Below are positions 3,641-62,048 of a stretch of 63,440 nt of DNA, piece by piece. The position numbers and the translations under genes are program-made. How positions within the stretch are numbered: position 1 is the stretch's first letter; every line of letters begins with the position of its first letter. The stretch is taken from positions 1 through 63,440 of the forward strand of contig JANMKN010000032.1 of assembly GCA_031372065.1 (NCBI GenBank). Direction: 5' to 3'. Origin of the DNA: Abditibacteriaceae bacterium (GTDB lineage Bacteria; Armatimonadota; Abditibacteriia; Abditibacteriales; Abditibacteriaceae). The notes beneath the pieces were generated by a model. The model worked only from the letters and a program-made list of their open reading frames with translations. It was not told the origin of the DNA and did no database searches.

Positions 3641-3883
3641 CCCTGAACCGCCACTTTTCAAGCCGAGAAGCCAGTTTTCAGCGTAAGTGCGTGATTTTCA
3701 AGCTGAGAAGCCATATTTCAATCGTGAGGATGCATATTTCAGACTGAGAAGCCATATTTCAGGCTGAGAAGCCATATTTCAGGCTGAGAAGCCATATTTC
3801 AGGCTGAGAAGCCATATTTCAGGCTGAGAAGCCATATTTCAGGCTGAGAAGCCATATTTCAACGGAAAAATGGCTTCTCAGCC
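3640..3883. repeat. 20-bp tandem array (AGGCTGAGAAGCCATATTTC), about 11 units plus one inverted partial copy
   Basis: Five identical units 3761-3860, degenerate units 3640-3760, inverted ATGGCTTCTCAGCC at 3870-3883. Confidence 0.95.
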
Positions 3884-26450: not shown

Positions 26451-27926
26451 TTATTCGCTGGGCTTCTCCACATAACCGTGCAAAGGTGTGCCGGTGTTTT
26501 CGTCGTGCGCGGTATTGTCGGGCGCTTCGACTGCATCCGATTTCAATTCTTCTTTCAATTCTTCGGGCTTGGGAATATCGGCGGCCACGGCGCCAACGCG
26601 CAAGTGCAAAGGCGTGGCGCCTGCGCCGACGGTTTCGTCTTTGGGCGTGCCGATGCGCGTGCCGCAGCGACTTTGCGCGGCGGCGGGGTCAATTTCGCGC
26701 CCGCTTTCTTGCAAGCGACGCGCGACATAAGCATCCAATTTGGCTTTGAGTTCAGCCACGATTTCAGGATGGCTGGCGGCGATGTTGTTTTGCTCGGTGG
26801 GGTCGGCTTGCAAGTCGAACAATTCCTGCATCGGGCGGCCATGATAATCTTGTTCGATGCTCTGAATAAATTTCCATTGGCCGTTGCGATAAGCGCGCTT
26901 GACTTGCCATGTCGCTTCGCTGAAAAACAGTTCTTCGTAGTTGCCGCGTTGCTCGCCCTTCAAACAGGGCACCAAACTTTGGCCTTCACAGCCCAATAAA
27001 TCGGGCAGACCGGCCAATTCAAAAAAGGTCGGCGCGAAATCGAGGTTTTCGATGAATCCCGGCACGCGATGGCCCGCTTTTAAGGCGCCGGGCCAGTAGA
27101 AAATGGCCGGAATATGAATATCGCCTTCATAGAGGCCGTGATGGTCATAAAAACCCAGTTGCTCGTCGAGAATTTCGCCGTGATCAGCCGTCAGAACCAC
27201 TAATGTTTCGTTTTGAATCGGCTTTAGCGCCTCGAAAACAAGGCGCAATTGGTCGTCCATGTAGCGCGTTTCGGCATCGTAAAGCGCGTTGACGTATTGC
27301 GAATCGGTGATGCCGGGCATCCATTCGTGAAAATACCATTTGAAGGTTTCATCGTTCCACGCGGCGTCCATCGAATGATTGTTCGGGTCATACGGGTCGC
27401 GGTCAGCCGGATAAAAGAGCGGGCGATATTCATGCGGCGGCAAATAGGGCGTGTGCGGATCCCAGTAGTGCAAAAAGAGGAAAAAGGGCTTGTCCTGCGC
27501 TTGCAATTGTTCAATCGCCGCCACAGCCATTTCCGTCACGGGTTCGGCGCGGCGCAAAACTGTCGGGTCGCTTCTGTCCCAGTTTGGCGTGTCATATTGA
27601 TCGAAGCCGCGCGGAAAATGACGGCCCATCGTATCCACGGCGTGAGTGCGCCAGCCGTTTTCCTGAAGCACTTCTTGAATCATCTTGATGTTTTCGTCCA
27701 GCGGCACGCCGCCGCCGATGTTGATGATGTTGTGCGTGATGGCTTCTTTGCCGGTCAGCATCGTCGTAAACGAAGGATGCGTCGGGATATTCGGCGCATA
27801 GCAACGCTCGAAAACGACGCCCTTTTCGGCAATCGAATCAATAAACGGCGAAGTCGGCTTGTCGTAGCCGTAACAACCCAAATGGTCAGCGCGCTGCGTG
27901 TCGAGCGCAATAAAAACGATGTTCAT
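26451..27926 (-). CDS. Sulfatase-like hydrolase
   Basis: DTQRADH, HYWDPH, TADHGE, ELFDLQADP. Confidence 0.9.
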   Translation of the reverse strand: MNIVFIALDTQRADHLGCYGYDKPTSPFIDSIAEKGVVFERCYAPNIPTHPSFTTMLTGKEAITHNIINIGGGVPLDENIKMIQEVLQENGWRTHAVDTMGRHFPRGFDQYDTPNWDRSDPTVLRRAEPVTEMAVAAIEQLQAQDKPFFLFLHYWDPHTPYLPPHEYRPLFYPADRDPYDPNNHSMDAAWNDETFKWYFHEWMPGITDSQYVNALYDAETRYMDDQLRLVFEALKPIQNETLVVLTADHGEILDEQLGFYDHHGLYEGDIHIPAIFYWPGALKAGHRVPGFIENLDFAPTFFELAGLPDLLGCEGQSLVPCLKGEQRGNYEELFFSEATWQVKRAYRNGQWKFIQSIEQDYHGRPMQELFDLQADPTEQNNIAASHPEIVAELKAKLDAYVARRLQESGREIDPAAAQSRCGTRIGTPKDETVGAGATPLHLRVGAVAADIPKPEELKEELKSDAVEAPDNTAHDENTGTPLHGYVEKPSE

Positions 27927-27932
27927 GGTGAA

Positions 27933-27994
27933 GGGGCTGGAGACTGGAGATTAGAGGCTGGGAACTCAGTCCTCAGCCTCTAATCTCCAGTCTC
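27933..27994. repeat. Heptamer-based inverted repeat (GAGACTG/GAGATTA type)
   Basis: gagactggagattagaggctg mirrored by cagcctctaatctccagtctc. Confidence 0.8.
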
Positions 27995-28060
27995 TTGATG
28001 TTCTCTGACAAGGATAAAGCAAATAGAAGGGGCTGTCACCGTTTTAGCAGAGATTGGCTT

Positions 28061-29503
28061 TCAATTCCTGTCGCCGGGCAGTTCCAGGATGGGTTGGCCG
28101 TCTCCATCGGCTAAAATGACCTGCCCACCTTCTTCACTGGCACTCAACACGACGTTGATGGTGCTGCCCGGCCCCGATACGGCCACCTGACCGTAATCTT
28201 CAAGCGTTGTCAAAGTGACGCGTGACACGCCCGAATCGCTGCACAGGTTGACTAAAGCGCCCTGTTCTCCTACGCCCGTTTGCAATTGTCGCGTGCCTTC
28301 GGCATTGTAAAAGTCCATCACGGCACCGAATTCCGTCGCGCGCAGCACGGCTTGCACTTCGCCCTTGTTATCAATGATGGACAGCACGCCACCTTCGGCA
28401 CCATGCTGCAAAGTGGCGACTCCATCCTCGCCGTGACAGATAAAAACGCGTCCGCCATCGTCTGTCGTATCCAGCAACAAGGACGCCTTACCGTCCTTGT
28501 CCATCAGCAAAACCGCGCCGTGATCTTGTTTCGAATGCAGCGAAACCGGCGAAGTGCCGTCTTGCTGGCATAAAATGACGTGTGAGCCAGTGGCGGAACT
28601 GCCAATCACTAATTTCTCGCGATTGGCACCTGTCATCACCAACTGGCCGCTTTGGGCCTCGGCTTGAAGCGAAATGTGTTCAACATCTTGGTTGTCATAC
28701 ATTTTCAAGCTGCCACCGCCGCCACTATACAGCATCACTTCCGGCTTGTGATGGCTCATTAAATCCAGTTTGCCGCCCGATTTGGTGGCTTTGAGATAAA
28801 CCGCGCTTTCTCCCCCATCGCACGCTACAATGCACTGCCCGCCTTGGTCGGTCGCTTGAATCATAATTTGTGGAAGCCTTTGGTCATCGGTAAAAACCAA
28901 AGTGCCGCGCCCATCAATCAAGCCCAACATGGCGCGCGTGCTGCGATTCTCGTCGGTAATAGCCAAAGTCGGGCCACCGGTCGCGTAAGCGAAGAATGAC
29001 AGGCTTTCGCCGTTGGCATCTAAAACTTCCCAACGTCCGCCATTCTCGTCCGAAAATAGCCCACCGCGCACTTCGTTATCCGGCCCATTGACCTGCAACG
29101 CGCCGCCGTCTTCTCTGGCCTCCACCGAAGCCATTACGCGGCCATCGGGCGCTCCGACCATCAGCGCGCCCCGGTCATTTGAGGTCAATAGCATCAAACG
29201 TGGCGCGTCATCGCTGCCCCAAAAGATTAAAGAGCCACCTTCGCCCGCATCGTGACAACTCACAAAAGCATGGCCCTTGGCGTCGCTCATTTGCAAAGCG
29301 CCGCCGTTGCTGGTGACCGTGAACTCCCCGACGACTTCATCGCCGTTTACCAATTCGATGCCGTCCACTTTCAAACGCGCCGGAATATGCTCCTCCGAAA
29401 GCGTCGCGGGCAAGCCCAAAGCGCGCGTAAGCAGCGTCATTTGAGCGCGTAGTTGCGCCACTTCGGTTTCCAAAGCGGCAATGCGTGTCTGGTTTTCGTC
29501 CAT
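28061..29503 (-). CDS. Hypothetical protein: N-terminal coiled coil plus about 19 repeats of about 22 aa
   Basis: Recurring GGxLxxxDxxG pattern; AAGGA RBS before MDENQ. Confidence 0.75.
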   Translation of the reverse strand: MDENQTRIAALETEVAQLRAQMTLLTRALGLPATLSEEHIPARLKVDGIELVNGDEVVGEFTVTSNGGALQMSDAKGHAFVSCHDAGEGGSLIFWGSDDAPRLMLLTSNDRGALMVGAPDGRVMASVEAREDGGALQVNGPDNEVRGGLFSDENGGRWEVLDANGESLSFFAYATGGPTLAITDENRSTRAMLGLIDGRGTLVFTDDQRLPQIMIQATDQGGQCIVACDGGESAVYLKATKSGGKLDLMSHHKPEVMLYSGGGGSLKMYDNQDVEHISLQAEAQSGQLVMTGANREKLVIGSSATGSHVILCQQDGTSPVSLHSKQDHGAVLLMDKDGKASLLLDTTDDGGRVFICHGEDGVATLQHGAEGGVLSIIDNKGEVQAVLRATEFGAVMDFYNAEGTRQLQTGVGEQGALVNLCSDSGVSRVTLTTLEDYGQVAVSGPGSTINVVLSASEEGGQVILADGDGQPILELPGDRN

Positions 29504-29543
29504 GGTTTCCTTTTTATACAGCAAAATGACGCTTCTTAGGCGC

Positions 29544-29746
29544 TGGGATCAGCCATCTTAATCAATAAGACGACTTATCCTGTTTGATAGGATGGTCCGT
29601 CCTAACCCTTAGGACGGCCTGTCCTGACCATTAGGACGGGCCATTCTGTGGTTAAGACGGGCTGTCCTATTCGATAGGACGGACTGTCCTGACCATTAGG
29701 ACAGGTCGTCCCATTGGTTAAGATAGACGATTCTTTTGATTAAGAC
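29544..29746. repeat. 22-bp periodic array TAGGAC-N5-GTCCTR-N5, about 9 units
   Basis: TARGAY starts at 29566, 29588, 29610, 29632, 29653, 29675, 29697, 29719, 29741. Confidence 0.9.
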
Positions 29747-29811
29747 AGTGAACTTTTCTTGTCAATTTGATAATCTAACACAGTGGTTTACTCTATTTAA
29801 AGGAGATTTTT

Positions 29812-30528
29812 ATGTCTTTTTCGCAGAAATACAGTTGGGCCGAGAGCGAAATGCCCAAATTAGTGCTGCAACTGTCGGCGGTTGGCCTGCAATTGGACTC
29901 GCCGTTAGCGGTGAGTTTGGGCGTGCTGCCCGCCGACGCCACGCACTGGAAAAGTGGCGCTGCGGTGCTGGCTTTCGCCGGAAACTACATTGGCGCGCTG
30001 CGGGGCTACGCGGTGGCCGTCACCCACTGGCGCGATAACTTTCTCATTGACCGCACACCAGAGCGCGTGGTGCTGCCGCATCTGACGCTGCCCTCCATTC
30101 CGCCCGATGTGCAAGCGGTCTTTGACGATCCGGCTTTCCTGACCGATTTTCTCGATTGGTGCAACGCCTTAGTGGCCCGCATGGAGAAAAACGGCCTGAC
30201 CGATGCCGATAGGAGTCAATTGGGCCTGCTGGTGCCACCGCCCCCGCCGCCCAAAGACCAAATGCAGGCCGTAGTGCGCTCGGTGCATGACCATCCGCAC
30301 GGCCTGATTGAAGTCAATGCCGACCGCAAAAATCAGCCGCAAGTCAAAGCGACGGTCACGTTAGACGACGGCACCGTGCTGGAAAAGACGCTGCCCAGTG
30401 CCAAAATCCCGTTCAACCTGCCGACAGATCGCATTCACAGCTTCACCGTGGTGGTGCAATACGCCGACAGATTAGGCAACCTCTATGGCCTACAGAGCGC
30501 GCCCTTCTCTGGCCGCAGCGAGTTGTAA
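29812..30528 (+). CDS. Hypothetical cytoplasmic protein: helical N-domain, poly-Pro linker, FN3/Ig-like C-domain
   Basis: AAAGGAG RBS; no signal peptide; QLGL-PPPPPP linker followed by beta-rich C-terminus. Confidence 0.7.
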   Translation: MSFSQKYSWAESEMPKLVLQLSAVGLQLDSPLAVSLGVLPADATHWKSGAAVLAFAGNYIGALRGYAVAVTHWRDNFLIDRTPERVVLPHLTLPSIPPDVQAVFDDPAFLTDFLDWCNALVARMEKNGLTDADRSQLGLLVPPPPPPKDQMQAVVRSVHDHPHGLIEVNADRKNQPQVKATVTLDDGTVLEKTLPSAKIPFNLPTDRIHSFTVVVQYADRLGNLYGLQSAPFSGRSEL

Positions 30529-30560
30529 CTCATGTTACGCAGTGCGCTATGGTAGGCACT

Positions 30561-30755
30561 GGAAAGAGCGACTTTGTCGCTCGTCCCCTCACCCAACCTC
30601 TCCCCCATTCGCTTCGCTGGGGAGAGGAGAACTTGACCACTACGCCCTTGCCCTATTCAGATGAGCAGAAGCGTATGAGCAACGCACTCCTCTCCCCAGC
30701 GAAGCGAATGGGGGAGAGGTTGGGTGAGGGGACGAGCGACAAAGTCGCTCTTTCC
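30561..30755. repeat. REPIN/MITE-like element with 69-bp perfect inverted arms
   Basis: 30561-30629 is the exact reverse complement of 30687-30755; 57-bp core. Confidence 0.9.
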
Positions 30756-30805
30756 TCCTAACACAAATCAACCGCTTAACATGAGTTGTAAGTAGTCCAC
30801 CAAAC

Positions 30806-44805: not shown

Positions 44806-46242
<1,437 letters not shown>

Positions 46243-50988: not shown

Positions 50989-51380
50989 AAACGAGCTAAC
51001 GCACTGCCCAATGAATTCCAGTTGCCGTTTTGCGGGACGGTTGTTTCGGCCTGCGCGCCGCCGGGCCGGAAGGTTAAAAGCGCGTTGCCGAGCGCCCGCA
51101 ACCAAAAAGGGCGCCTCCATTGGCGTTCGCGGGGCCGATCTTCTCGTTCGCGGCGCCACTATTTGCGTTGCGGGGGCATTAGGTTGTCGTGAGAAGCGCC
51201 AATCTAATGCTGTGCCAAACGGCCTTCGTAAATTACCAAACGCATTCCACTGAGCGCCTCGTTCTTACCCCACAGTCTGTTTTTCCACCGCGCGTTTCGG
51301 CAACAAATTTATCGAACGGATCGTTCCGCTTTATCTGAGCCGCGATGACGGCCAAATTTTCACGGCAAAAAGGCCAATAA

Positions 51381-61174: not shown

Positions 61175-61780
61175 TTAAATCGTTAGTTGCGCGCTATTGG
61201 AAACCGGGCCATCGCCCGCGTCGTTGAAGGCGATCACGGCGATTTCCCATGTGCCGGTGGGCAGGTCGCTAATTTCGGCCTCATCGCGCGTCACGACAGC
61301 GTGTAATGTCCACGCAGAGGTGCCTTGAGCGCGGCGCATCAGTTTGTAACCCGCCGCTTTGCCACCACCGCGCGGCTTTTTCCAGTCGAAATCTACTTCG
61401 CGTCCGTTGATTCCAACGATTTCAAAATCGCCGCATTGCGCGGGTTTTTGCAACGCGGTCGGGGCGGCGCGCTTGCCCCATTTGATGAGTCTCAACTGGG
61501 CTTCGGTGATGCCGGGCAAGCCTTCGGCCCAACGCAACAGCGCCTTCATGGCGTCGGTCAGCGTGCCGAATTTGGCGTTTTTGGCGTTGGTTTTGGCCTG
61601 CGCGATGGCGATGGCCTGCGTTTGCTCGGCGAGCGCCGTGACGCACTCGCTATTGGTCGTGCGCAGTTGAGCGGGCGTGACGGGCGGGTTGGCGAAAACA
61701 GTCGGGTTGTTCGCGATGCCGTCGGCGATGTCATCGGCCAACTGCATGACTGCCGCGTCTGCGATGGGAAACTGGGGCAT
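61175..61780 (-). CDS. Cytoplasmic protein: helical N-domain plus C-terminal fibronectin type III domain
   Basis: FDWKKP, GY, L.TGTWEIAVIAFNDAGDGPVS FN3 pattern; AAGGAG RBS; no signal peptide. Confidence 0.85.
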   Translation of the reverse strand: MPQFPIADAAVMQLADDIADGIANNPTVFANPPVTPAQLRTTNSECVTALAEQTQAIAIAQAKTNAKNAKFGTLTDAMKALLRWAEGLPGITEAQLRLIKWGKRAAPTALQKPAQCGDFEIVGINGREVDFDWKKPRGGGKAAGYKLMRRAQGTSAWTLHAVVTRDEAEISDLPTGTWEIAVIAFNDAGDGPVSNSAQLTI

Positions 61781-61831
61781 GATTTTTCTCCTTCGGGGAT
61801 GTAATTCCGATTTTATCGTATTGCACGTTGC

Positions 61832-62048
61832 CATTCAATGCGCAACTCGTTTTGCCTCAGCTCAAGCTCAATCTGCTTCATAGTGAGCTTGATCCGAGGC
61901 AAAACGAAGTTAATCTGAGGCAAATGAAGCTCGATTGGAGGCAAATCGGGCTTGAGAAGGGGCAAAATGAGCTTCATCTGAGGCAAAACGAAGTTAATCT
62001 GCCTCAGATTAACTTCGTTTTGCCCCGTTTTAAGTTCGTTTTGCATCA
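61832..62048. repeat. 21-bp periodic array TG(AGG/CCT)CA-N4-RAGYTY-N4, about 10 units in both orientations
   Basis: Register 61853, 61874, 61895, 61916, 61937, 61958, 61979, 62000, 62021, 62042; perfect 19-bp stem 61982-62024. Confidence 0.9.

Follow-up and report, generated by a model that had tools for sequence, protein, structure and literature searches.

Phased repeat arrays paired with genes for helical/FN3-fold proteins, and gene-less copies of those arrays, apparently form an undescribed system in an Abditibacteriaceae genome

Phased repeats next to the promoter from which their binding protein is expressed are familiar from parC, sopC and the Omega heptads. Repeats in which length is held and sequence is free have also been described: the accessible text of Subirana & Messeguer 2021 (PMC8161180) reports constant-size tandem repeats of 20-21 nt, present in many bacteria and left unexplained, notes 40-41-nt forms and two helical turns, and proposes a polymerising protein. 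Two further systems come close, each as given in the accessible part of its source: TIGR-Tas, where a 36-nt unit carries two variable spacers of 8-9 nt between box C/D repeats (PMC12045711), and REPINs, REP doublets whose movement depends on a tyrosine transposase (Bertels & Rainey 2011, PMC3116915).

Here we describe a system of gene plus array, accompanied by gene-less array copies, that is real and apparently undescribed. The starting point is one locus within the window (the whole stretch of DNA analysed, 63,440 nucleotides), and about 70 array-plus-gene units together with about 280 gene-less arrays likely mark an undescribed family of self-spreading elements. No paper on such a gene-array pairing was found in the literature outside subscription journals, and the accessible text of PMC6749651 holds nothing on 21-nt arrays. 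The locus comprises the following features.

29544..29762, no strand: non-coding array of 22-bp period, ten box-5-box-5 units, one of them (29632-29652) 21 bp long
29767..29794, + strand: weak putative sigma70-like promoter, TTGATA-16-TACTCT (7.7 bits; absent from the list of a stricter scan)
29800..29805, + strand: ribosome-binding site AAGGAG, read from the sequence
29812..30528, + strand: P0001, a 238-aa gene whose product is modelled as a helical domain plus FN3 fold and predicted to form an antiparallel homodimer
30529..30790, no strand: dispersed hairpin repeat with perfect 69-bp arms (30561-30629 and 30687-30755)

An initial annotation had described alternating inverted hexamers ending 65 bp before a gene with a ribosome-binding site, and this description holds in each part. 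The units begin, all in register, at 29544, 29566, 29588, 29610, 29632, 29653, 29675, 29697, 29719 and 29741 (that at 29632 is one base short of 22), with a hexamer-5-hexamer-5 layout and boxes TAGGAC and GTCCTR; the final box ends 65 bp 5' of the ATG at 29812, with AAGGAG at 29800 in between. In 2000 shuffles, autocorrelation at lags 10-39 never exceeded 0.42; the array itself gives 0.56 (lag 22) and 0.51 (lag 44), and its consensus unit shows dyad symmetry (0.82, p=0.003). Over 27500-30590 the sequence is matched with zero differences by a contig of run X1, which is possibly the source data itself. What does not hold is the idea of variable 5-mer spacers: the 5-mers are degenerate versions of one consensus (e.g. 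ggcct/gggct/ggact), so that the entire 22-mer is the repeat. A coding heptad repeat is ruled out by the 22-bp period together with stops in all six reading frames. The gene upstream is oriented away from the array; an ORF of ~480 aa on the minus strand (28061-29524), divergent from the array, has repeated beta-rich units and no match in Pfam or NCBIfam.

The hairpin had been proposed as a third part of the module, and here the evidence points the other way. It matches 64 places in the genome and follows 7/75 family genes, as against 21/4267 other genes, leaving 68/75 family genes without it; by eye it is absent after both other members of the 22-bp group (loci L023 and L024), and a short version lacking the long arms exists (at a joint in the run X1 contig, and on contig C7). 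It is thus enriched but dispensable: a separate repeat and a passenger, not a required part.

The model of P0001 (pLDDT 90) places helices at residues 14-137, one of them 39 residues long, and an FN3 fold at 145-238, of which residues 147-238 superpose on FN3 with Z 10.8 and rmsd 2.3 over 86 aligned positions. The protein has no match in Pfam, NCBIfam, PHROG or PADLOC (for the last, 0/18 members of group A3 match at E 0.01), a PDB profile search gives none under E 0.001, and the ESM Atlas yields leads under 0.8 only. Fold searches with the whole model return a list filled by FN3 matches, and the viral fold library likewise gives matches to FN3 only. With two paralogues as queries no relative was found in phage, plasmid or viral contigs; one paralogue matches the PHROG 'minor tail protein' across helix and FN3 (E 1.6e-6), and a relative 56% identical in protein is encoded in an Abditibacterium sp. 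record. The helical domains match no DNA-binding family in profile searches of Pfam, NCBIfam and PHROG and are neutral or acidic overall, with a net charge of -5 for residues 1-140 of P0001 and negative values for 8/10 domains checked.

When two copies of P0001 are modelled together, an antiparallel pairing is predicted, with the interface at residues 49-115 and a score of 0.78 (best control 0.00); the mark set for this score is reached by 20/30 solved homodimers and 1/23 single chains, and at least 92% of contacts recur between runs, at pLDDT of at least 89. Fold and dimer are both products of prediction, and the pairing supports, rather than establishes, binding as a dimer. As a rough estimate from the model, a dyad near residue 65 would set the starts of the two long helices ~75 A apart, near the length of 22 bp of B-DNA.

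A second module lies further along the window.

61175..61780, - strand: P0002, a 201-aa gene of a different family and equal layout (helical plus FN3, from structure model and profile comparison)
61810..61838, - strand: sigma70-like promoter TTGAAT-17-TAAAAT, read by eye, between the second array and P0002
61884..62001, no strand: 21-bp array of P0002, core as delimited by TRF, with inverted blocks extending on both sides

The initial annotation had likened P0001 to P0002, had noted that the latter possesses a different array of its own, and had proposed structure prediction. The second array is indeed present, and both proteins model as helical domain plus FN3 (P0002 111-201 superposes with Z 15.0 and rmsd 1.5 over 91 aligned; the Pfam fn3 match, E 5e-5, is below cut-off). 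The likeness stands at the level of layout and goes little further: BLASTP finds no alignment between the two, and profile comparison relates their C-terminal halves at 87% and E 3.8e-6, or at 39% with in-genome profiles. P0001 and P0002 are different families of one layout and, judging from their sequences, probably remote relatives. Other repeats in the window include a second dispersed hairpin repeat 3' of P0002 (61080-61175; 14 genomic places), short TRF rows with 2-3 copies of a 21-bp unit (45069-45117 and 51110-51173) and heptamer tandem repeats (8558, 36025, 42064, 42110, 43715, 46243 and 46281), period-7 TRF rows being a second repeat class with 202 instances in the genome.

A family seeded from P0001 alone has nine members in the genome, eight of them with an upstream array and one at a contig edge. 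When all families are pooled (80 loci), the array is upstream of the gene at 59, weak at 2, downstream at 7 and missing at 7, the other 5 loci being at edges; the upstream rate for other genes is 198/3907, a comparison that is partly circular in that array-adjacent genes served as seeds for most families. In other genomes, 15 loci are well matched: an array is clear at 10 of them and absent at 1, and the remaining 4 give a marginal peak at 21/42 (this check took 21 of 30 found loci plus two earlier ones, partial matches being uncounted). The dispersed array-plus-protein module first suggested is therefore borne out, homologues being strongly enriched for upstream arrays. In a family of ~160-aa helical proteins (C234:5384, C43:343, C382:42588, C69:7917, C239:5613, C320:10486) the array lies downstream of the gene in 6/7 loci. 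A proline codon precedes the stop in 26/55 array-linked genes, against 305/3896 others, with paralogues not independent; such genes are spread over most of 11 family groups, P0001 and P0002 not among them, and Pro-stop slows termination.

Paralogues that are 84-89% identical in DNA bear different array units, so any recognition must be loose or fast-changing. Ten paralogue pairs have mostly different neighbours, with the shared sequence often running from the far end of the array to the stop codon; two pairs additionally have upstream sequence in common. The sharp end of homology at stop codons was considered as an element end and set aside, given that ordinary orthologues diverge there too. 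In the pairs C201/C247 and C271/C277, residues 26-140 vary far more than FN3 (23/115 vs 8/91, 4/97); C184/C228 and C395/C5 show no excess change in that region over FN3. Truncated family genes adjoin some arrays (C275, C233, C298, C146 and C210). In genus g2, all 13 of 13 genomes hold a relative of one helical family, conserved and single-copy, with an array at 0/5 loci examined (L156-L160); this array-less relative is possibly a domesticated form.

Array period follows a clade of proteins. In the genome, 296 of 346 arrays have a period of 21/42, 33 of 41, 13 of 20/40 and 4 of 22/44, these being lengths equal to two or four helical turns of DNA; within it, a family of 306-313 aa has periods of 41 or 42, and two other families 42 only. 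P0001, L023 (genome G022) and L024 (G262, where the gene has an early stop) form one clade with support 100/99, and 3/3 of its members have periods of 22/44, every other tree member with a visible array being at 21/42. The clade's proteins are 33-57% identical and their units are three unrelated, dyad-like sequences: the units have been fully replaced and the period kept. Palindromy as a general rule for units was rejected, dyad symmetry over 109 units being 0.529 vs 0.498 when shuffled. In two scans of metagenomes no additional locus turned up, so that the 22-bp clade is represented by three loci with DNA, and a linked array simply inherited together with its gene could produce such a pattern. 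With 21-bp sisters in the same genome, the 22-bp clade would offer a 'natural experiment' on spacing versus sequence.

Sites resembling promoters bear on whether the array acts as DNA or as RNA. In a matrix scan, such sites of at least 8 bits were found at 22/57 linked loci vs 67/442 controls; 19 of the 22 fall 6-55 bp beyond the array end, and the weaker site of P0001 begins 5 bp past its array. With promoter-like sites downstream, the array is probably outside the gene's mRNA, favouring, on sequence grounds, a DNA element rather than leader RNA and weakening the processed-RNA option of the initial annotation.

Most arrays in the genome, 279 of the 346 (47 of these near contig ends), are unlinked 'orphans', with 67 linked to a gene. 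Two orphans lie in the window.

3696..3861, no strand: gene-less 20-bp array, a sequence sister to the one that precedes a family gene on contig C137
11522..11680, no strand: gene-less 21-bp array directly 3' of the stop of a Ham1-family gene, at a site without an array in genomes G001-G003

By single linkage on shared 12-mers, a grouping that can join nested arrays (C228/C116), an unlinked sister exists for 44/67 linked arrays, and a linked one for 107/279 unlinked arrays. Nesting is seen at C116:21174-21556, past the end of a WD40-like gene, where the stub of one array type encloses an array of another type. For the P0001 array no sister emerged from a profile scan with two units; one did with a single unit. 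Of 6.14 million positions, the one outside the array that best matches its 17-bp core is the end unit of a 22-bp orphan on C341. CATATG boxes are present in this orphan and in its sister on C90, one C341 unit retains the linkers ggcct and accat, and the two orphans appear, from their sequence, to descend from the lineage of the P0001 array, with the qualification that C341 starts at a contig end and a gene there may be missing.

Comparison between genomes suggests that orphans behave like lineage-specific insertions. Where their flanks are conserved in G002/G003, the array is absent in 5/5 sites; the P0001 and P0002 cassettes have no DNA match in G001-G003 either. Orphans lie in convergent gaps in 61/206 cases vs 403/2260 (p=8e-5), their ends are ragged, and neither target-site duplication nor a common end motif was seen. 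In the near-complete G004 a linked array matches five other places, 3/3 of those examined being 21-bp arrays without a family gene; a guessed sister in its locus L142 was not supported, and the fragmented assemblies of G022 and G262 contain no sister to their 22-bp arrays. Sampled density ranges from 21 arrays in 200 kb (G004) through 3 in 120 kb (G009), 2 marginal ones in 197 kb (G003) and 1, coding-like, in 140 kb (G012) to zero in G002 (200 kb), G011 (140 kb), G016 (100 kb) and G021 (100 kb). None of five family profiles finds a match in G002 or G011; at least five family genes are present in G003 and about five were found in G004, and since G003 has several genes yet few arrays, array number is not proportional to gene number. 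At two orphan sites, that of window 11497 in G002 and that of C219:20230 in G003, other small ORFs replace the array, which suggests insertion hot spots at gene ends. ORFs with an HUH-like motif lie at C343:2581-3120, adjoining a 21-bp array, and C57:2848-3345, and are candidate mobilisers.

Drawing these observations together, we propose a model in which array, promoter-like site and gene are likely one unit of a cassette family. The predicted antiparallel dimer would bind array DNA every two helical turns, with a spacing of 22 bp in the P0001 clade and 21 in most relatives, and a dimer bound there would likely control its own promoter; copies of the array likely reach the ends of unrelated genes without taking the gene along. 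DNA binding, autoregulation, the setting of the period and aid to array spread are all steps that we infer, and since searches revealed no catalytic motif, any copying would depend on enzymes of the host or from elsewhere. We incline, at a confidence just under even, to the reading of a cassette family whose array copies are non-autonomous and REPIN-like in behaviour, with no recognisable transposase and a dimer bound in helical phase. We hold more tentatively, as possible and on balance unlikely, a bolder form of this reading: a widespread class of intragenomic replicators, lacking any transposase of known type, whose helical dimers act as 'rulers', each setting how long the repeat of its cognate array is (20, 21, 22, 41 or 42 bp) and promoting the copying of that array to new sites.

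It may instead be that the adjacent protein never touches the array, its period being kept by a host nucleoid or transcription protein or by slippage and unequal crossing-over, with orphans being cassettes minus their gene. Acidic proteins, the turnover of units between close paralogues, truncated family genes beside arrays, one orphan that retains the start of a promoter region, and the conserved array-less relative of genus g2 all sit comfortably with this; but few gene fragments lie beside the 279 unlinked arrays, 0 of the 19 arrays listed in the G004/G009 samples adjoin a family gene, and family-specific periods coexist in one host where a single host ruler predicts otherwise, so that we judge it somewhat improbable. 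Slightly more doubtful is a single-stranded role, in which read-through RNA or ssDNA would form phased hairpins bound by the dimer, the hairpin form also being the one that moves. Perfect inverted arms of at least 16 bp do occur in 110/346 arrays, vs 2/200 random stretches, the P0001 array folds at z=-11.9, orphans are often 3' of stop codons, and 22 bp is two turns of an A-form helix; against this, good folding is expected of any palindromic repeat, 236/346 arrays are without such an arm, an Rfam scan returned generic microRNA hairpins and no family at gathering score, and both the position of the promoter-like sites and the orientation of the gene upstream of the P0001 array speak for DNA.

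Could the sister arrays be deliberate sites, each protein being a sequence-specific regulator or nucleoid organiser with a regulon or bridging network? Sisters do have the unit sequence of a gene-linked array, and the accessible text of PMC8161180 proposes proteins that polymerise on constant-size repeats and stabilise the nucleoid; yet orphans prefer convergent gaps to promoter regions, flank unrelated genes and are lineage-specific, and G002, of the same genus, shows no arrays in its sample, which leaves little probability to this explanation. Least credible by far, and very improbable indeed, is a guide-RNA system like TIGR with ultra-short spacers, a likeness that the initial annotation had raised. 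Its appeal is the motif/variable/motif/variable look, a small gene next to an array of between 5 and 15 units, and a predicted C2 dimer through long helices that recalls the TasR dimer, as far as the accessible text of PMC12045711 describes these. In contrast to TIGR-Tas, however, no Nop, RuvC or HNH match is found by Pfam, the unit is 22 bp and not a 36-nt dual-spacer unit, the 5-mers repeat one consensus and are not free spacers, the C-terminal domain is FN3, and the array lies upstream of a promoter-like site.

The cassette model can also be set against other described systems. Phased repeats beside a gene's promoter recall plasmid centromere and operator arrays, with the differences that here there is no partner ATPase or filament gene, that the copies are chromosomal and number about 80, and that unit sequence is not kept between close paralogues. 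With REPIN-RAYT, as set out in the accessible text of PMC3116915, the arrays have in common that they are extragenic, lineage-specific, non-autonomous repeat families with frequent inverted structure, and dispersed copies near a cognate gene are found here too; they differ in being phased tandem arrays of 20-22 or 41-42 bp with ragged ends, not inverted REP doublets, and array-linked proteins match no transposase family (Pfam, NCBIfam) and model as helical plus FN3. Should the protein set the period or spread the arrays, it would represent a selfish or domesticated element of a new kind and, at the same time, a compact ruler for DNA.

The constant-size repeats of PMC8161180 have shared features too, again as its accessible text presents them: a fixed period of 20-23 nt, variable sequence, several families per genome and a mostly non-coding position, and the arrays of the source genome likewise have a fixed period, variable sequence, several families and non-coding placement. 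That text names no adjacent gene family ('fibronectin' and 'upstream' each have 0 occurrences), whereas here arrays are tied to helical-domain genes, period tracks clade, and orphans trace to linked arrays. The P0001 locus names a candidate protein family behind the unexplained repeats of constant 20-21-nt length and, should the replicator form of the model be true, would supply their missing protein.
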